64,000 nucleotides of DNA, taken from NCBI GenBank assembly GCA_027026255.1, contig JALVOT010000004.1:39061-103060 (forward strand), given 5' to 3'. Positions 2,038 to 60,866 of this stretch are shown here, piece after piece; positions within the stretch are counted from its first letter, which is position 1; each line of letters opens with the position of its first letter. The notes below the pieces were generated by a model, which searched no databases, was not told the DNA's origin, and worked only from the letters and a program-made list of their open reading frames with translations. A program made the translations under genes and the position numbers. This DNA is from a candidate division WOR-3 bacterium. GTDB lineage: Bacteria > Hydrothermota > Tepidihabitantia > SM23-42.

Positions 2038-3039
2038 ATCCACCCCGAAATCTCCCTTTACCACCTCACCGATAACAATCGGCTTTATCGGACGAAACTG
2101 TTTTATATCTTTCTTATCAATGATACAAACCATTCCGATACCCATATTAAAAACCCGATACATCTCATTTTCTGGAACCTTACCCAGTTTCTGAATCAAA
2201 GAAAAAATTGGCAGGGGTTTCCAGGCATTTTTATGAATTATTACTGAACATTTCCCGGGAAGGATTCTTTTGATATTATCATAGAATCCTCCTCCAGTAA
2301 TGTGGGCAAGACCTTTTATATATTCCATCCTCGGCTCAAGCATCTTTCGATACGAGCGATGAACCTTTAACAACTCTGCGCCAATGGTGCATTTCAATTC
2401 GGGTACATAAGTAGAGAAGCCGTAATTTCTGAATAATATCTTACGTGCCAAGGAATAGCCATTGGTATGGAGGCCTGAGGATTTTAATCCCAGAACAATA
2501 TCACCGGGCCTGATTTTTGAACCGTCGATATAATTACTTTTTTTGACTATACCGACGATGAATCCGACAAGGTCATATACACCCGCAGGATAAAACCTTG
2601 TGAGTTGAGCGGTTTCACCTCCAACCAGCACAATCTTCTCTTTTTTACAGGCCTTTACCACGCCGGAAACAGCCTGGGTTAGAACCCGGGGCTCGAGTTT
2701 TGAGAATCCGATATAATCCATAAAAAAGGCTGGCTGGGCACCGGTGGTAAGGATATCATTTACACAATGGTTTACTAAATCGATACCCACGGTATTATGT
2801 TTATCAAGGGCACAGGCAACAAGGATCTTGGTCCCCACCGAATCACAGCTGCTGATCAAATAATGCTCTTTCCAGGCATAGATGCCGCCAAACAGGCCAA
2901 AGACCGCGCCGCTACTGCCTTTAAATGTGGAGGTCACCTTCTTGCCTATACTTTTTTTAACCTGATTTAAAAAATTGATATCAACTCCGGCTTCCTTATA
3001 AAGCATATCCAATTTTAACCAATTTATCTGCAATTGCAA
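2029..3039 (-). CDS. purM: Phosphoribosylformylglycinamidine cyclo-ligase (AIR synthetase)
   Basis: 336 aa. N-terminal YKEAGVDI and DSVGTKILVA AIR-synthase-family motifs, with the PurM C-terminal domain. Confidence 0.9.
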   Translation of the reverse strand: MQLQINWLKLDMLYKEAGVDINFLNQVKKSIGKKVTSTFKGSSGAVFGLFGGIYAWKEHYLISSCDSVGTKILVACALDKHNTVGIDLVNHCVNDILTTGAQPAFFMDYIGFSKLEPRVLTQAVSGVVKACKKEKIVLVGGETAQLTRFYPAGVYDLVGFIVGIVKKSNYIDGSKIRPGDIVLGLKSSGLHTNGYSLARKILFRNYGFSTYVPELKCTIGAELLKVHRSYRKMLEPRMEYIKGLAHITGGGFYDNIKRILPGKCSVIIHKNAWKPLPIFSLIQKLGKVPENEMYRVFNMGIGMVCIIDKKDIKQFRPIKPIVIGEVVKGDFGVDLV

Positions 3040-3320
3040 GTATTTTTTATCGGCTCTGACGAGTCAATTTGTAAAATTTTCTATATTTATCCGGGAAACT
3101 GTTGATAAAATGATTTTTCCGAGGAGGATAATCAAAATGTCTGCCCTGCCATTTATAATTGATACCCTCTCGCAAATATCAAAAATCCCTTCGTTCGCAT
3201 ACGACCCATCCAATACCATTTTTGTGAAATTAAAAAACCATTATTTCAAAAAACTTCCTGATTCAGTTGAAGAGAAAAAAGTCACAGCACCTTTTAGAAA
3301 ATCGGGCAAAAGTCGAAAAG

Positions 3321-5546
3321 TTACCGCAGTCCCTGGGCCTTAATTTCCGCAGGGATAAAATCTCTTAGTGCTTTCCGATTCAAAATCCTTTTGACATCGG
3401 CCCGGTTTTTGTGTATCAAACACTGTTCGAGAAATTCCTGAAGTCCATTTTCTAAACGATTTATAACCGCCTGCCTCATCTGCTCAGACCAGGGATCATA
3501 CATATGTTCAAATGGTCTGGCGCGAAATAGTTTGAATGCAGACATATATTTTTTGCAGACATAACACCATTCACCAGAATTCATTAATGCCTTTGCCTGG
3601 ACTAAGTTGAGTTCAAAATCCTTATAATCGGTGGTGAAATAAACCCCCTTATTTATCAATAGTTTATTGACCTGGTTATGGGATACTACAAAAAGATGGC
3701 TTGGCAGATGCATTCTTTTCTTGAGCCTTACCAGCAGATGCGAAAGCTGGCTTGAAGGATTTTTACTTTTAGGCCAAAAGTTTTTATAGAGCTGATCAAC
3801 GAAGATTGATTTCCCGGGTTCACCCACCCTGAGTGCAAGATGAATGAGAAATGCCTTTTCCTTGGGAGTCAATAAAACTCTAAAATATTTATGATTGCGA
3901 TAGATAATCATCTTCCCGAGAAATTTTATCTGATAGACCGGAATTTCACGCATAAAAATTGGTAGTCGCAATAACCTTTTGGAAACTCCGGGGTTCTGTT
4001 TCTTTGTAAGTATACCTGTAATAAGTTCTGGGAAAAAAACAATGACCCGTTCAAAAAATCCCATCAAACCTTTCTTCTTTGCATAATTCAAGGCTTTATT
4101 AAAATCTTTTATCTTTAATGATGTCTGGGCACTTCTAAGAAGAGATATTAAATATAATACAGGAAGTCTAATTGAACCAACATCCGTCTTTCCTAAAAGA
4201 GATTCAATCGTTGCCCGATGTTTCATCATATGATATTTTTTAAGAAAGACCAGACTCTCCTGCAGTAAAACTTGCGCTCTCTTTTCATTTCCCAATGCCT
4301 GCTCAATAACTGCCAAACAGAAATTTGCCATATAAATGTAATTACGGAATTGTATTTTTTTTGATTTTTCAAGACACTCTTTAAGATAGAAAACCGCTTT
4401 TTCCAAACTTCCCAGGCCCAGGTTAAGAAGCGCCTTAATCAAAAGATAAAGGGTATAATCCTCACTATCCGATGCTATATTTGACCTATTTTTAAGAAAA
4501 TTCTGTGCTTTTTTGTATTCACCGCCGAGAACCAAAACAAGCGCTATCCTCAAACAGAGGTCTATATCATAATCTTCCTTTTCAAGCTCTAATGCCTTAT
4601 TGTAATATTTTAATGCCTCTCCATAATCAGTAATAAATGTCATTAAATCACCAACCATTATGTATGTATTTGGATGTCTTAGAGAGGTAAGTAATCTTCT
4701 GCACTTTCTTGCACAGACAATTGCATTCTCCACATCCAGAAGTTCTGCACTGGCTGCCCCACTTAAAAATGTCAATGCCATATTTAACGCCGGCTCTCTT
4801 ATATTTTTCACCCGTTTCCTCAACAATCTATTTAACTGTAGCTCTTTTTTCGGCATACGCAGCCAGTGAAGAGCGAGAAGTTCAATAATACCTGCCCAAA
4901 CCGAAGAATATAAAAAGCCGCTTTTCTCAAACATCTTTCTCAAACGTCTTGCCTTCTGGTAAACAACCACTTTGAAAGTTTCCATAAACTCCGCATCAAG
5001 TTTATCCAATCTTCGCCGTAGAGACAGATAACGTTCGGGAATCTTCTTCAGAATATCTGAATATTCAATAGGAAAAGCAGGTAGTTTATTCAAAATTTCT
5101 GCAGCATTTTTCAGGGTTTTATGATCAGAGTTCTTTAAAAGAATAAATTTTACCTTTTCAATAATCTCTTTTGACTCCGGAGTTGAATTCGCCATCGGTG
5201 AAAAAATATTTTCTAAAGGATGATTAATCAAACCGTATCGTTTCCATATAGAATGAATCCCTTTTAATGAAATTTTTATATTTTGTTTTTTTAAAATTTC
5301 TTTTGTCTGCCTGAGGGTAAGCCAGGGTCTATTCTCTTTTAAAAACATAACCCTTTCTTCTATATCCACACCAAATCGATTCCAGGGTTTATGATATGAA
5401 TATTTTAAATTATTATATCTCTTCACGAATCGCCATAATGTCACATGGGATATATTAAATCTCTCAGCCGTCCTTCTTAAAGAACCATCTTCAGCATAAG
5501 CTGAAATCGCCTCCGTCTCTATTTCTGTATTCTCTTTTCGCCTCAT
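3321..5546 (-). CDS. Large multidomain transcriptional regulator: N-terminal HTH, central TPR-like repeats, then an OmpR-type winged helix and a BTAD-like domain
   Basis: 741 aa. N-terminus RRTAERFNISHVTLWRFVKRY is an HTH of the transposase/IS630-like type. The middle has TPR-like repeats (e.g. EALKYYNKALELEKEDYDIDLCL). Residues about 560-640, LTPKEKAFLIHLALRVGEPGKSIFVDQLYKNFWPKSKNPSSQLSHLLVRLKKRM, fit the OmpR/PhoB trans_reg_C pattern. A BTAD-like helical segment follows. The gene is divergent from the duplicated phosphatase genes. Confidence 0.6.
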   Translation of the reverse strand: MRRKENTEIETEAISAYAEDGSLRRTAERFNISHVTLWRFVKRYNNLKYSYHKPWNRFGVDIEERVMFLKENRPWLTLRQTKEILKKQNIKISLKGIHSIWKRYGLINHPLENIFSPMANSTPESKEIIEKVKFILLKNSDHKTLKNAAEILNKLPAFPIEYSDILKKIPERYLSLRRRLDKLDAEFMETFKVVVYQKARRLRKMFEKSGFLYSSVWAGIIELLALHWLRMPKKELQLNRLLRKRVKNIREPALNMALTFLSGAASAELLDVENAIVCARKCRRLLTSLRHPNTYIMVGDLMTFITDYGEALKYYNKALELEKEDYDIDLCLRIALVLVLGGEYKKAQNFLKNRSNIASDSEDYTLYLLIKALLNLGLGSLEKAVFYLKECLEKSKKIQFRNYIYMANFCLAVIEQALGNEKRAQVLLQESLVFLKKYHMMKHRATIESLLGKTDVGSIRLPVLYLISLLRSAQTSLKIKDFNKALNYAKKKGLMGFFERVIVFFPELITGILTKKQNPGVSKRLLRLPIFMREIPVYQIKFLGKMIIYRNHKYFRVLLTPKEKAFLIHLALRVGEPGKSIFVDQLYKNFWPKSKNPSSQLSHLLVRLKKRMHLPSHLFVVSHNQVNKLLINKGVYFTTDYKDFELNLVQAKALMNSGEWCYVCKKYMSAFKLFRARPFEHMYDPWSEQMRQAVINRLENGLQEFLEQCLIHKNRADVKRILNRKALRDFIPAEIKAQGLR

Positions 5547-8228: not shown

Positions 8229-8240
8229 CAGCCATTATTA

Positions 8241-8285
8241 CTTAATACAGTCTGCGGGGCATTTTGCCCTGCAGACTGTATTAAG
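8241..8285. terminator. Long near-perfect hairpin (about 21-bp stem) downstream of phosphatase gene 1
   Basis: CTTAATACAGTCTGCGGGGCA-TTT-TGCCCTGCAGACTGTATTAAG. There is no U-tract on the plus strand. It could be a terminator, an RNA-processing site or a protein-binding palindrome. Confidence 0.4.
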
Positions 8286-8482
8286 TGGAATCACTCTCAT
8301 TCTTCGTAACCACAAAAATAGTTTCCTATCCATCCGGCATTATGGTTCTGTCTTCAAAAGTAACAACTCCCTGACCTCCAAATGTTACCCTCATTATTTG
8401 ATTTTTAAGTGTATAGACATATACCTTACAGGGACGCTGCATTGCATATCTCTGTTCAATAATAATCCGAGTGATTTCGTCA

Positions 8483-15047: not shown

Positions 15048-15250
15048 GGGGTCAAATCTTCACAATTCACAATTGATAGAGCCGAATATTTGTTTGATTT
15101 TGTTTCGGTTTAACATACGTTCTGATGACGAGGTTATATTGCGGCGTTGTTTCAAGATATTTTATCAGTATAATGGTATTACCAACTTACGATTGGTGAG
15201 TTAATAGTATGTCACATATATAAACTTGTGAATTGTGAAGATTTGACCCC
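15048..15250. mobile_element. MITE-like element, family B, copy 1 (203 bp, 25-bp perfect terminal inverted repeats)
   Basis: Left end GGGGTCAAATCTTCACAATTCACAA at 15048-15072. Right end TTGTGAATTGTGAAGATTTGACCCC at 15226-15250. The internal sequence is the reverse complement of the internal sequence of the copy at 60666-60866. It has no ORF. Confidence 0.6.
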
Positions 15251-15421
15251 AAATACGGGTGTTTGCGATCGGTGTATGTATGTCAGAAAAAGATAGAGAG
15301 GGCAAAGGTTGGGTTGAATGAGGTTTTGATAAGGCCGGAAGGTTTTTCTGCTGGTGTCTATTTTGTGCGTTTTAAGGCGGGTAATTATCAGGCAGTTAAA
15401 AAGGTGGTGCTTGTAAGATAG
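15251..15421 (+). pseudogene. 3' remnant of a T9SS C-terminal-domain cargo gene, truncated at the MITE-B boundary
   Basis: Frame translation ...VYVCQKKIERAKVGLNEVLIRPEGFSAGVYFVRFKAGNYQAVKKVVLVR* carries the terminal SGVYF-x-R-x-KAG...KKVVL pattern of Por/T9SS sorting domains. The frame is closed by a TGA inside the MITE's inverted repeat, so there is no start codon or upstream body. Confidence 0.4.
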
Positions 15422-15481: not shown

Positions 15482-15509
15482 TTGACATTACAGATGAATT
15501 TATTATAAT
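15482..15509 (+). promoter_or_regulatory. Sigma-70-like promoter (TTGACA-16-TATAAT) immediately upstream of the alpha/beta-hydrolase gene
   Basis: TTGACA at 15482-15487 and TATAAT at 15504-15509. The annotated GTG start at 15516 is only 7 nt downstream. That implies either a leaderless transcript or a later true start codon. Confidence 0.4.
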
Positions 15510-15515
15510 TTAAAT

Positions 15516-18032
15516 GTGGAACTTCTATTTATCTTAATCATCTTCAGTAATTCCCATTTCCTGCCCACAATATCTGACACGATAGTCATTGACCGCTGGT
15601 CCTATTTAGGACCATTCTCGATTGGACCGCGAGAAGGGATAACCGGATTTGATAAAGAAATCCTTTATAATAAAAATTTTTCTCCATCAATGGAAAAAGT
15701 ATATCCCGGTCTGTTGATGCCGGGTGGAGATATCCGGTGGAAACAGCTACAGACCGATAAAGAAGAAGTCAAACTTGCATACAATGAGGTTGAATGGGAT
15801 TCTATCCAGGATTATTATGGTATCCCGGGCATAATATGTGCTACATATTTCTATGGAGAATTTTCTACTCAGAAGCATTGCCGTGCCTTAGTATACGCAA
15901 AGGGTATCGGTTCATTTATGCTTAATGGCCGACGCTATTTAGGGGACCTGTATCGTCAGAAAAATTTTATGGTGCCGGTGGTTCTGCATAAGGGCAAGAA
16001 TAGAATCATCATCAAGGATACCGGCTTTAAAGAACACAATTTTCGATTCAGATTGGTTCCGGTAGCGCAGCCGATATTGATTTTAAAGAATAACATAACC
16101 AAACCCGATTTTATAAGGAATGGGGAAAAACAGTATTGGCTTGGTATACCCATTTTGAATACTACATCAAAAAGGCTATACAATATAAAAATAGAACTGA
16201 ATGGCGAGGCGATTTCAGAGACAGAAAAGACCATTAAAAGTATCGTCCCATTATCAGTCATCAAATTGCCGATTATGATTGAAAAAAATAATAATATTTT
16301 GCAAGGTGAGACTACAGATATTAATATCACTCTTAAATGGAATGATTATACAATTAAAGATAAGATTCAAATTGCGATAAAGGATATGGGTGATATTCAG
16401 ATAAAAACATTCCGCTCTAAGATTGACAATTCCTGCCAGTATTATGCACTGCGTGTTCCAGCCCGGTTTAACAGAGATTCATCTTACGGTCTGATTATGA
16501 CCTGCCATGGTGCCGGGGTAAGAGCCGGGAACATGGTCAAATCATATACCCGGAAAGATTGGGCATTTATCGCGGCACCCACCAATCGGGGAAGATTTGG
16601 TTTTGACTGGCAGGACTGGGGAATGCTCGATTTCTTTGAGGTGCTCGAGGATGTAAAGGCCCGTTTTAAAATTGACCCAAATCGAATCTATTTAACCGGC
16701 CATTCAATGGGTGGCCATGGGGTCTGGCATATCGGCCTTTCCTTTCCGGATCGGTTCTCCGTAATTGCGCCATCAGCGGGGTGGACTTCATTTCGACTCT
16801 ATATCCCCTGGTTTCTTCAGAAGGCGGAACTCTTCGGCGATCCCGGGTTATTAAAAATTCGGGATATGGCATTGGTGCAGGACAACCCTTTAATCCTCTT
16901 AGAGAATGGTTATAATCTATCCATATACATTCTTCAGGGTGGTGTAGATAACAATGTTCCCCCTATTCAGGCGAGATTCTTCAACAAGTATCTCAGTGAT
17001 TTTCACAGAAACTTTATCTACAAGGAGATTGAAGGAAAAGGACACTGGTGGGATATCGATTCTACACCCGGGATTGATTGTGTGGACCAAAAGGAACTGA
17101 TGGATTTTCTGAAATCATCCCGGCGTACCCCCTATCCCAAAAGGATTGTATTCAAGACGGCGGATATTGACTATTCCAATGCCGCCTACTGGATAAGGAT
17201 TGACCAACTTGAACATCTATATCGTATTGCCCGGGTGGATATTCAGGTAAAAAAGAAAAATTTTATAGAGGCGGAACTGAATAATATCCATAGTTTTACC
17301 GTATTCCTGAATGACCGGATTGTTTCCCCGGGAAATGTAATGTTTAAGATTAACGGACGGAAAATCAAGTATTTGTATCGTGCTAAATGTGAAATTGGTT
17401 TTATCAAAGAAGAAAAAGGCTTTGTTATCAATAAAGAAAAAAACAAGGGGCTGCATAAGAAAAAAGGGCTGTATGGTCCGATAAAAAAGGCATACTTCAC
17501 TCCATTTATTCTTATTTATGGAACAATTGGAGATTCTTCGTCAACTGAAGAGAATCTTGCCCAGGCACGCTGGCAATCATATCTCTGGTATTATCGGGGT
17601 AATGGATTTGTTGAAATCATTCCGGATACTGAAGTTACCGATCAAATTATCAAAGACTACAATCTGATTCTCTTCGGAAATACAGAAACAAATTTTATCT
17701 TAAAGTGGATCAATTATCAACTGCCCATTCATATGGGTGAAGAGTATATCGTCTTTGATAATAAAAAGTTAAAGGACAAAAATCTTGTATTTGTAGAGGT
17801 CTATCCCAACCCCTTAAACCCCCGACATCTGGTTCTGGTCTATTCACCAATCTCCAGGCCGGCAGAAAAATTTATGGGTATATTCTCACCACTCTATTCA
17901 GGTTCGGGTTTGCCCGACTATATTATCTATGATGAATCGGTTTTAAAATATGGCCGGGCTGGAGTAAAGGCCCTGGGATTTTTTGATAAAGACTGGAAAT
18001 TCAATCCCCATTCAGGGTTTATCTCTGATTAG
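15516..18032 (+). CDS. Large alpha/beta-hydrolase-fold protein (putative esterase/peptidase with a GHSMGG nucleophile elbow)
   Basis: 838 aa. LTGHSMGGHGVWHIG is a G-x-S-x-G serine hydrolase motif inside a predicted alpha/beta fold. The N-terminal about 250 aa and C-terminal about 300 aa have no recognisable motif. The start codon is uncertain. Confidence 0.6.
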   Translation: MELLFILIIFSNSHFLPTISDTIVIDRWSYLGPFSIGPREGITGFDKEILYNKNFSPSMEKVYPGLLMPGGDIRWKQLQTDKEEVKLAYNEVEWDSIQDYYGIPGIICATYFYGEFSTQKHCRALVYAKGIGSFMLNGRRYLGDLYRQKNFMVPVVLHKGKNRIIIKDTGFKEHNFRFRLVPVAQPILILKNNITKPDFIRNGEKQYWLGIPILNTTSKRLYNIKIELNGEAISETEKTIKSIVPLSVIKLPIMIEKNNNILQGETTDINITLKWNDYTIKDKIQIAIKDMGDIQIKTFRSKIDNSCQYYALRVPARFNRDSSYGLIMTCHGAGVRAGNMVKSYTRKDWAFIAAPTNRGRFGFDWQDWGMLDFFEVLEDVKARFKIDPNRIYLTGHSMGGHGVWHIGLSFPDRFSVIAPSAGWTSFRLYIPWFLQKAELFGDPGLLKIRDMALVQDNPLILLENGYNLSIYILQGGVDNNVPPIQARFFNKYLSDFHRNFIYKEIEGKGHWWDIDSTPGIDCVDQKELMDFLKSSRRTPYPKRIVFKTADIDYSNAAYWIRIDQLEHLYRIARVDIQVKKKNFIEAELNNIHSFTVFLNDRIVSPGNVMFKINGRKIKYLYRAKCEIGFIKEEKGFVINKEKNKGLHKKKGLYGPIKKAYFTPFILIYGTIGDSSSTEENLAQARWQSYLWYYRGNGFVEIIPDTEVTDQIIKDYNLILFGNTETNFILKWINYQLPIHMGEEYIVFDNKKLKDKNLVFVEVYPNPLNPRHLVLVYSPISRPAEKFMGIFSPLYSGSGLPDYIIYDESVLKYGRAGVKALGFFDKDWKFNPHSGFISD

Positions 18033-33938: not shown

Positions 33939-34247
33939 CTGATTCCTCTCCACTTTTTGTCTCGGTTTTTTGTAAACTATGTTACAATATAGCCGGGGGG
34001 CGTCTCGCTCCGAGGCGGGGACGCCGCCCGCGCTGAGAAAAATGGAAACACCGCCCGCCCTAAAAAAAATTGAACCGGGCGAAAATAGCAGAGAAATTTT
34101 TCAAATGACCAGTAAAATAATATAAAAAAGTAAAACGAAGTTGTTGAGTATTTTTCGTCTTATTTTACTAATCTCAAAGAAGTTTATTCTGTTCAGAATA
34201 CCGTTGCAATTAATCCGGGAGGCATAATGAAAAAAGTGGAGAGGAGT
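33939..34247. mobile_element. MITE-like element, family A, copy 2 (309 bp)
   Basis: Intact left terminal inverted repeat CTGATTCCTCTCCACTTTTT at 33939-33958. Right end AAAAAGTGGAGAGGA at 34231-34245. It shares about 90% identity with copy 1 but carries an internal deletion of about 65 bp (the GGAA-capped hairpin region) and only 2 tandem-repeat units. Confidence 0.55.
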
Positions 34248-34455
34248 CAAAAGTCTTTCTTCAAAAAACATCCTGCACAGGCAGTTTCTGAATTCCCTGT
34301 GTTTTATCCCGGAGAAAAATCTCAAATATGTATTATTATCTCATTCTATACACCTGTAATGAATTTCTGATTGTGCTGTATCGGGATTTAATCATATTTT
34401 GTGGAAATAAAAAAGGGACGGGCATAACCCGTCCCTTTAATTATTCTAATCAGTG

Positions 34456-52483: not shown

Positions 52484-52734
52484 CTAACTAAATAATTGAA
52501 AATTTCAAGGGGGTAATCAGCTGATTCCTCTCCACTTTTTGTCCCGGTTTTTTGTAAACTATGTTACAATATAGCCGGGGGGCGTCTCGCCCCGAGACAG
52601 AGCGCCTGGCGAGCTGCAGGAGTTTCTGAAACGAGTTAAGAATGACAAACCTCCAGCGGGCGGCGGGGACGCCGCCCGCGCTGGTAAATTGAAAATTTCA
52701 AGGGGGTAATCAGAAAGGCAGGGAAGACGTATTT
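52484..52734. mobile_element. MITE-like element, family A, copy 3 (truncated; flanked by two copies of a 27-bp degenerate right-end-like repeat)
   Basis: Left terminal inverted repeat CTGATTCCTCTCCACTTTTT at 52511-52530. The shared core runs through the GGGGCGTCTCGCCCC hairpin and the GGGA-capped GC hairpin, then stops after one repeat unit. AATTGAAAATTTCAAGGGGGTAATCAG occurs at 52484-52510 and again at 52708-52734. Both end in AATCAG like the canonical right repeat. Confidence 0.5.
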
Positions 52735-52849
52735 TGGTTAATTTGTCCAATGTCGAGATTTGACCCTCAATCTATATATTATTGACACATCCCTTTTGCT
52801 GGATAATATCTTTTATGATTAAAGAATTAACTAAAAAACCGGCTGCCCT

Positions 52850-60665: not shown

Positions 60666-60866
60666 GGGGTCAAATCTTCACAATTCACAAGTTTATATAT
60701 GTGGCATACTATTATTTCACCAATCGTAAGTTGGTAATACCATTATACTGATAAAATATTTTGCAACGATTTCGCGTATAATCCCGTTATCAGAACGTAT
60801 GTCAAACTGAAACAGAACAAACAAATAATCGATTTCATCAATTGTGAATTGTGAAGATTTGACCCC
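60666..60866. mobile_element. MITE-like element, family B, copy 2 (201 bp), inverted relative to copy 1
   Basis: Identical 25-bp terminal inverted repeats GGGGTCAAATCTTCACAATTCACAA at 60666-60690 and the reverse complement at 60842-60866. The interior is about 85% identical to the reverse complement of 15073-15225. It sits in the intergenic region between pyrG and the sigma-54 regulator. Confidence 0.6.

Follow-up and report, generated by a model that had tools for sequence, protein, structure and literature searches.

Paired short inverted repeats in a WOR-3 bacterium as probable miniature derivatives of a TIRYT element

Closest described systems

RAYT-like genes with long flanking inverted repeats have been named TIRYT, and the units that they form TIRtrons (Di Nocera 2013, PMC3733652). 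According to the available text of that paper, TIRtrons carry a GGGGWSAS motif, their repeats overlap the ends of the gene, and they belong to moderately abundant families of single, dimeric and grouped repeats. Most TIRYTs fall into TnpAY1 subclass 2.1, whose proteins have a C-terminal DnaA_C/HTH domain, the criterion being that this domain is related to Bac_DnaA_C, HTH_23 or HTH_28 (Quentin 2018, PMC6006769). Its authors doubted that the domain reads the repeats, noting that GGGGWSAS is unlike a DnaA box, and left the question open; they also equate the subclass with TIRYT.

Two short repeats (family B) lie in the window, which is the whole 64-kb stretch of DNA that was analysed. These repeats and their parent element fit the TIRYT/TIRtron class; the family itself is new, while the class was already known. 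As in the TIRtrons of the available text (PMC3733652), a RAYT-like tyrosine transposase gene lies between long terminal inverted repeats, there are no REP hairpins, the repeats overlap the 3' end of the gene, and copies are dispersed singly, as dimers and in groups. At the start of the repeat, GGGGTCAA agrees with GGGGWSAS at seven of eight positions, with A instead of S at the last. The family B repeat sequence and its WOR-3/Stahlbacteria hosts are not among the examples in that text. Two features go beyond what it describes, in that the dimers include copied internal-deletion derivatives of the gene-bearing unit and the repeats combine an invariant outer part with variable heptads.

The agreement with subclass 2.1 (PMC6006769) extends to Y1 proteins of ~330 aa that are nearer to TnpA-REP than to TnpA-IS200, to the lack of REP sequences nearby and to a C-terminal HTH extension related to the C-terminal domain of DnaA, although here the relationship is one of fold only and there is no Pfam match. 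In family B, two tandem TTCACA(A) units in the inner part of the repeat resemble the DnaA-box core ..TNCACA, and they change along with the recognition helix.

REPIN-RAYT systems (Nunvar 2010; Bertels & Rainey 2011; structure 4er8) have the same nuclease fold, and 4er8 was the best structural match. They also share a gene placed between inverted copies of its presumed target repeat, short doublets that form long hairpins, a gene that is often single-copy in its genome and vertical persistence at some loci. However, the family B repeat is non-palindromic and has neither GTAG nor CTAC, the protein has double the length and an additional DNA-binding domain, its score against the RAYT model is below the cut-off, and copies number tens rather than hundreds. 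With the IS200/IS605 family (IS608, ISDra2) the element shares an HUH/Y1 domain, the absence of a target-site duplication and the expected single-strand DNA chemistry. The ends of that family are differing subterminal hairpins on one strand, in contrast to the perfect inverted repeats found here, and its TnpA is a protein of ~130-150 aa with no DnaA-like domain.

Bacterial MITEs of the Correia type are 100-250 bp long, with perfect inverted ends of ~25 bp. They are intergenic, occur in either orientation, derive from or depend on larger elements, duplicate a TA target and depend on enzymes of the DDE type. Family B differs in lacking a duplication and in having a tyrosine HUH enzyme as its partner.

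The window copies and their full-length relatives

A preliminary description, made from the letters of the window, had reported two elements of about 200 bp with identical, perfect 25-bp ends in opposite orientation, and this proved correct. The 25-mer GGGGTCAAATCTTCACAATTCACAA has four exact matches in the window, which bound elements of 203 and 201 bp, and no further near-match with ≤ 3 mismatches was found in the 64 kb. There was no match in 100 dinucleotide-preserving shuffles, even at 3 mismatches, and the chance expectation is 0. The features of the two copies, together with a related solo end, are as follows:

15048..15250, + strand: copy 1, 203 bp, non-autonomous internal-deletion derivative of a TIRYT element
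15048..15072, + strand: left 25-bp terminal inverted repeat of copy 1, 0 mismatches; outer GGGGTCAAATC, then TTCACAA TTCACAA
15118..15202, + strand: transposase-gene remnant in copy 1, codons ~258-286, start of the DnaA-IV-like domain
15226..15250, - strand: right 25-bp terminal inverted repeat of copy 1, 0 mismatches
52743..52767, + strand: solo end of another TIRYT class, TTGTCCAATGTCGAGATTTGACCCT; same outer motif, different heptads
60666..60866, - strand: copy 2, 201 bp, with the same deletion structure as copy 1 in the opposite orientation
60666..60690, + strand: terminal inverted repeat of copy 2, the element's own right end, 0 mismatches
60716..60797, - strand: transposase-gene remnant in copy 2, same gene segment as in copy 1 (blastn)
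60842..60866, - strand: terminal inverted repeat of copy 2, the element's own left end, 0 mismatches

The + strand of copy 1 corresponds to the sense orientation of the lost transposase gene, and in full-length elements the stretch equivalent to its right repeat codes for the final residues of the transposase (..LCEL) and the stop codon. Reverse-complemented copy 2 is colinear with copy 1. The interiors are identical at 130 of 153 alignment columns (85.0%, matching the earlier estimate; 21 mismatches and 2 gap columns), whereas all 50 repeat positions are identical (Fisher p = 0.001 against the interior rate). The flanks of the two copies are unrelated (13/40 bases identical). Differences between the interiors (15073-15225 versus 60691-60841) are unevenly spread, with 20 in the left 84 columns and 3 in the right 69, for which partial gene conversion or constraint on the right subterminal part are possible causes.

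Other parts of the preliminary description also held. No ORF is common to copies 1 and 2, in line with the claim that they have no coding capacity, and the neighbours are those named. Copy 1 follows an arginase/agmatinase-family gene (PF00491), beginning 15 nt past its stop codon. Copy 2 lies between a sigma-54 response regulator gene, 16 nt after its stop codon, and pyrG, 65 nt upstream of its start codon. No direct repeat was found flanking either copy. In Rfam searches the whole window gave only tRNAs at gathering thresholds and copy 1 gave nothing at E ≤ 1. No TIRYT transposase gene was found within the 64-kb window.

A 20-mer from the repeat was used to scan one genome per GTDB species, JGI/ENA metagenomes and viral contigs. 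The family is not limited to the two window copies, since the 20-mer matched 13 stretches in the GTDB species genomes (from the complete WOR-3 MAG CP070802.1, two Stahlbacteria MAGs and unclassified MAGs) and 46 in metagenomes. Viral contigs gave 0 matches and the full-length element had no match in plasmids; on these grounds a phage or plasmid origin was rejected. With mismatches allowed, the 59 public stretches and the window contained 40 paired elements of 74-1073 bp, plus solo ends.

A search for a cognate transposase, which had been proposed as a check, was successful in other genomes: there, identical 25-bp ends delimit elements of ~1060 bp, each with a Y1/HUH gene as its only gene. Ten of the 40 paired elements are full-length (1037-1073 bp), with the 25-mer at both ends at 0-2 mismatches; those in L004, L005, L006, L011, L017, L018, L043 and L046 are 1058-1073 bp long and have the 25-mer at both ends either perfectly or with one mismatch. 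Each full-length element has one Y1_Tnp ORF of ~329 aa, which fills the space between the repeats and is disrupted in L040. The complete WOR-3 genome CP070802.1 has one full-length element and five short repeat pairs.

Many of the shorter pairs (74-140 bp) have interiors unrelated to the transposase gene, and a few of them form small families. Others are deletion derivatives. L013 and L016 (250 bp, 98.5% identical, in differing contexts) keep the last ~190 bp of the element and L034 (181 bp) keeps the first ~120 bp. In-situ decay at the L018 locus was rejected as the source of L013 and L016, as the likeness of the flanks is confined to ~10 bases and the sequence further out cannot be aligned.

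Full-length elements in L006, L011, L017, L018 and L043 are close relatives (85-95% nucleotide identity) in unrelated contexts. L005/L021 and L040/L046, in contrast, occupy orthologous loci with diverged flanks, indicating vertical descent and persistence. Several, perhaps many, metagenome contigs stop at element boundaries, which fits a mobile repeat with variable context.

Signs of decay in situ were seen at L040 1141-2199, where the ORF is disrupted and the right end has 2 mismatches, and at L065 ~2410-2440, where a degenerate left end lies beside an intact gene. Repeat ends cluster near one another and near TIRYT genes (L043 3293-3352, L011 3010-3034, L003 ~2900-3046, L008 ~4700-4792). L043 has a solo left end 35 bp upstream of the full element, with GGTAATT repeated before each end; L011 has a class-2 end 358 bp from its class-1 element; and L003 contains reiterations of the motif GATTTGACCCC. 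The 29 short elements that were inspected are all intergenic, and in about half of them one end comes within 2-17 nt of a neighbour's stop codon, a preference that may be trivial given the very short intergenic spacers of these genomes.

The transposase and the ends of the element

The transposase matches Pfam Y1_Tnp (IS200-like) at residues 14-121 (E = 2e-13). Its best NCBIfam model is that of the REP-associated tyrosine transposase (NF047646; E = 1.8e-16), although the 60.3 bits obtained are below the cut-off of 80; for the NCBIfam IS200 model the E-value was 0.12 and the score 12.6 bits, its cut-off being 55. The HUH histidines H60 and H62 and the tyrosine Y102, in a GRY motif, are invariant in 40 of 40 aligned homologues. 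The AF2 model of the protein (pLDDT 76.7) had as its top PDB match the E. coli RAYT with a REP hairpin (4er8_A), followed by the TnpA proteins of IS608 and ISDra2. Its C-terminal ~95 residues superpose on domain IV of DnaA bound to a DnaA box (1j1v_A, TM 0.85, rmsd 1.6 Å, 93 residues), and comparison of this domain with 3pvp_B gave a TM of 0.83. By sequence, searches for the C-terminal DnaA-like domain with Pfam (including Bac_DnaA_C) gave nothing at E ≤ 10, and a phmmer search of the PDB gave nothing. The model thus predicts a protein that begins with an HUH/Y1 nuclease domain for single-strand DNA, which has the RAYT/IS200 fold, continues with a helical linker and ends with a domain like DnaA domain IV.

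A consensus promoter (TTGACA-16 nt-TATAAT) directly follows the left repeat, which its -35 box abuts. The start codon is 5 nt past the -10 box, and the transcript is presumably leaderless. At the other end the stop codon lies inside the right repeat (..CTT TGT GAA TTG TGA = LCEL*). In the window itself, a perfect sigma-70 consensus (TTGACA-16 nt-TATAAT, 12/12) at 15482-15516 ends 6 nt before the GTG start of an S9 peptidase ORF of 838 aa, the same tight spacing of -10 box and start as in TIRYT genes. Leaderless mRNAs may be common in the WOR-3 lineage of the window.

The dN/dS ratio of the transposase gene (0.07-0.32) indicates purifying selection. Between L006 and L005 or L004, synonymous sites are saturated (dS 1.3-2.3) and the proteins are 71-72% identical, yet the 25-mers are still identical. 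Homologues form 1,301 clusters (50% identity) at E ≤ 1e-30, most of which match across the full ~320-340 aa, and 15,825 at E ≤ 1e-10. They are annotated in their sources as 'transposase' or 'REP element-mobilizing transposase RayT', and most protein clusters occur on one or two contigs.

Distant homologues for which DNA was available (53-70% identity) have the outer GGGGTCAAATC, two tandem heptads, the -35 box and a stop codon in the right repeat. The outer 11 nt are invariant across six repeat classes and the heptads are variable. [quoted passage not shown]

TTCACAA/TTCACAA; tail ..CEL; helix residues NM (class 1)
TTCACTC/TTCACAA; tail ..CEE; helix residues SM
TCAACAT/TCAACAT; tail ..VEC; helix residues YQ
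TCGACAC/TTGACAA; tail ..SSVEI; helix residues S/N-K
TCGACAT/TGGACAT; tail ..SNVEI; helix residues S/N-K
TCTACTT/TGAACA; tail ..CSK; helix residues HQ

This co-variation of heptads and helix covers six classes and is partly confounded by phylogeny. Nevertheless, the protein of L046 (62% identical) keeps NM together with the class-1 repeat, whereas in L075 (66% identical) YQ goes with other heptads. In DnaA, H439 takes the place of the second variable helix position and contacts bases. The class-1 heptads give ATCTTCACA and CAATTCACA, each of which agrees with six of the eight specified positions of the DnaA box TTWTNCACA, a likeness that is only suggestive since an estimated ~0.3 such matches per 25-mer would arise by chance. 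We infer recognition of the variable heptads by the DnaA-like domain, while the invariant outer 11 nt would be recognized by the conserved nuclease domain.

Inspection of the flanks of all copies, also proposed earlier, covered 39 distinct insertions and revealed no target-site duplication, only a weak outward consensus, ATT(G/T)CC. Immediately outside the repeat, A is found at 68 of 78 ends, compared with a background of 29%, and the second base is A or T at 63 of 78. Flanks of the form AT/AT or ATT/ATT are only about as frequent as this base bias predicts, and a duplication of that kind was rejected. The true length of the repeat may be 26 bp (T GGGG ... CCCC A); otherwise insertion is at T|A. 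The 25-mer alone has an MFE of 0 kcal/mol as DNA and no internal palindrome, and a stem forms only by pairing of left and right repeats, which the flanking T and A would lengthen in single-stranded DNA. Whole short elements fold with z about -9, and the 25-bp stem of the window copies has z about -8.

The solo end at 52743-52767 lies outside family B but is of the same superfamily. Apart from its first and last base it is identical to ATGTCCAATGTCGAGATTTGACCCC, the right end of L065/L067 (tail ..SNVEI), and no partner end was found within the window. TIRYTs of at least two specificity classes have thus been present in the genome. Further repeats of the window include aaatttcaagggggtaatcag, present twice, near 52500 and 52690 (within 52500-52720), and TGATTCCTCTCCACTTTTT, which forms an inverted pair 272 nt apart at 33940/34231 (33940-34249) and recurs at ~52524; these are probably the family A of the preliminary description. 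A 22-nt inverted repeat at 8240-8286 (ACTTAATACAGTCTGCGGGGCA / TGCCCTGCAGACTGTATTAAGT) is 95% complementary and has a 3-nt loop.

Origin and mobility of the window copies

The interiors of both window copies retain a trace of the transposase gene. Interior positions 46-130 of copy 1 matched L011, L006, L018, L017 and L056 at 72-77% identity over 84-87 nt (blastn, E 5e-9 to 1e-4), with a weak tblastn match to transposase residues 255-281, and interior positions 26-107 of copy 2 matched L006, L011, L017, L018 and L056 at 72-76% (blastn, E 3e-9 to 2e-5). Global alignment of copy 1 with full-length L011, L006 and L043, in which long gaps were cheap, resolved three blocks. Positions 1-33 are the left end of the element including 8 subterminal bases (97% identity), positions ~63/71-155 correspond to ~825/833-918 of the gene region (residues ~258-286, the first helices of the DnaA-like domain), and positions 179-203 are the right repeat. 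Both window copies have kept the left 33 bp and the right repeat, with ~85 bp from the gene's 3' part in between. The alignments thus show gene-less, internal-deletion derivatives of a ~1.06-kb TIRYT element. As the deletion structure is the same in both copies and their flanks are unrelated, the deleted form was duplicated as a unit, which matches what non-autonomous mobilization predicts. Only two copies of this particular 200-bp form are known. The identity of the remnant to the sampled full-length elements, at only 72-77%, means that the true parent is unsampled or that the copies are old and possibly immobile now.

Exact-protein look-ups with the agmatinase and pyrG products found only the same genome; hence, comparison was made with distant syntenic relatives (pyrG 84-86%, agmatinase 71% identity), which are too far away to define exact insertion junctions. 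The window pyrG is 84-86% identical to that of WOR-3 MAGs, and the organism is of the WOR-3 lineage. The gene order DUF8173 - sigma-54 regulator - pyrG - LptC is conserved in three relatives, in which the regulator-pyrG spacer measures 162, 119 and 64 bp and contains nothing of the repeat; the window spacer has 282 bp, of which 81 bp are left when the element is taken out. The promoter of pyrG, conserved in the three relatives and the window, lies downstream of the insertion of copy 2. Between the agmatinase and S9 peptidase genes there are 30 bp in the closest available relative (agmatinase 71%) and 483 bp in the window. The preliminary description had allowed that its two copies might be the only ones and ancestral; in addition to the public copies, the syntenic pyrG and agmatinase loci of relatives without them support the view that neither copy is ancestral at its locus.

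Abutting the right end of copy 1 is a 3' gene remnant (15251-15421) with its 5' part missing. Its frame 1 ends in ..LIRPEGFSAGVYFVRFKAGNYQAVKKVVLVR* and its product resembles a T9SS C-terminal sorting domain. The position of this remnant beside copy 1 and the 30-bp agmatinase-S9 spacing in the relative suggest insertion followed by an element-adjacent deletion.

We conclude that the window repeats are probably (about 80%) non-autonomous, 'miniature' derivatives of a TIRYT element or TIRtron. The repeats are real and their reading as mobile, non-autonomous DNA is supported. As to the label 'classic MITE' given to them at first, the mobile non-autonomous family stands, but a DDE-type partner does not, the partner being a RAYT-like tyrosine enzyme of the TIRYT class. 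The label is thus only an analogy. With an HUH/Y1 enzyme as partner, the missing target-site duplication is expected rather than puzzling.

A classical MITE moved by a DDE transposase (Tc1/IS630-like or Correia-like, with a TA target) would account for the size, perfect terminal inverted repeats, intergenic position and either orientation of the copies, and the T outside the left end and A outside the right end of most copies could hint at a TA target. However, there is no TA or other duplication and the left flank ends in T, not TA. Moreover, all full-length elements with these ends encode a Y1/HUH protein only, and the window interior derives from such a gene, making this origin highly improbable. 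It is also improbable, if less so, that the copies are a static inverted duplication or a never-mobile cis-regulatory or structural element of the host, such as a 3'-UTR hairpin or a protein-binding site. Each copy follows a stop codon at 15-16 nt, and the two are oriented alike with respect to the gene that ends there; their RNA or DNA would form the 25-bp stem (z about -8), and the right half of the interior is unusually conserved between them. Against such a role, the flanks of the two copies are unrelated, in other lineages transposase genes and dozens of unrelated short inserts are flanked by these repeats, the element is missing from syntenic loci of relatives, pyrG has a conserved promoter of its own on the downstream side of the element, the stem is not followed by a T-run and there is no Rfam match. 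Scans showed no convincing outward promoter or terminator and the downstream genes have consensus promoters of their own, so a promoter or terminator role was rejected, although the window copies may have a secondary effect on host mRNA.

The remaining alternative is a matter of lifestyle, leaves the identity of the window repeats untouched and shares ground with the preferred explanation. In a domesticated system of the REPIN-RAYT type, the TIRYT gene would be a single-copy, vertically inherited host gene and the short pairs a dependent, long-lived population maintained by the host, as opposed to a selfish insertion sequence and its MITEs. The single full-length element beside five short pairs in CP070802.1, the occurrence of most protein clusters on one or two contigs, vertical descent at L005/L021 and L040/L046, purifying selection on the gene, the RAYT model as best NCBIfam match and the resemblance of the 74-140-bp pairs to REPIN doublets, which likewise fold as long hairpins, are all in its favour. 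In contrast, the full-length unit is itself bounded by repeats, the closely related elements of L006, L011, L017, L018 and L043 lie in unrelated contexts, many contigs stop at element boundaries as they would for a mobile repeat, and the 25-mer lacks an internal palindrome or GTAG tag while the RAYT score is sub-cut-off. Domestication of this type is regarded as unlikely.

For the window repeats as TIRYT derivatives, the course of events and a proposed mechanism are as follows. The autonomous form is the ~1060-bp element with perfect 25-bp inverted repeats and a single gene, whose product has ~330 aa. The window copies go back to an ancestor that lost most of this gene and kept both ends, and the deleted form was then copied to a second site. 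The ends are still intact in both window copies, and a class-matched TIRYT, assumed to be encoded elsewhere in the genome, could act on them in trans. Its DnaA-like domain would dock on the two tandem TTCACAA heptads of each repeat, and the HUH/Y1 domain would nick and rejoin at the invariant outer GGGGTCAAATC boundary (T|GGGG ... CCCC|A). A possible substrate is single-stranded DNA in which the repeats are paired as a 25-26-bp stem, bringing both junctions together, and a copy-out or cut-out reaction would leave no target-site duplication. No experimental demonstration of TIRYT transposition was found in the literature searched.

A broader proposal, made tentatively and with the odds somewhat against it, is that TIRYTs form a mechanistically distinct class of HUH transposons, in which a module like DnaA domain IV reads the heptads and sets specificity and the Y1 domain processes the GGGGTCAAATC end. 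If true, recognition of double-strand ends would be combined with single-strand chemistry in one hybrid system, in contrast to IS200/IS605 or RAYT, which recognize hairpins. It would also answer the question left open by Quentin et al. on the purpose of the DnaA-like domain, and the window copies would be passengers with ends kept intact long after their interiors had diverged.

For the window, two intergenic repeats and the solo end at 52743 are explained as traces of one mobile DNA superfamily, as is, probably, the truncated gene beside copy 1. The general picture is unchanged, as both the TIRYT class and repeat families had been described before. TIRYT proteins are nevertheless very common yet little studied in the literature, and the compact 1.06-kb unit, with its conserved modular ends and natural miniatures, would be a convenient system in which to test the recognition of repeats by HUH and DnaA-like domains.
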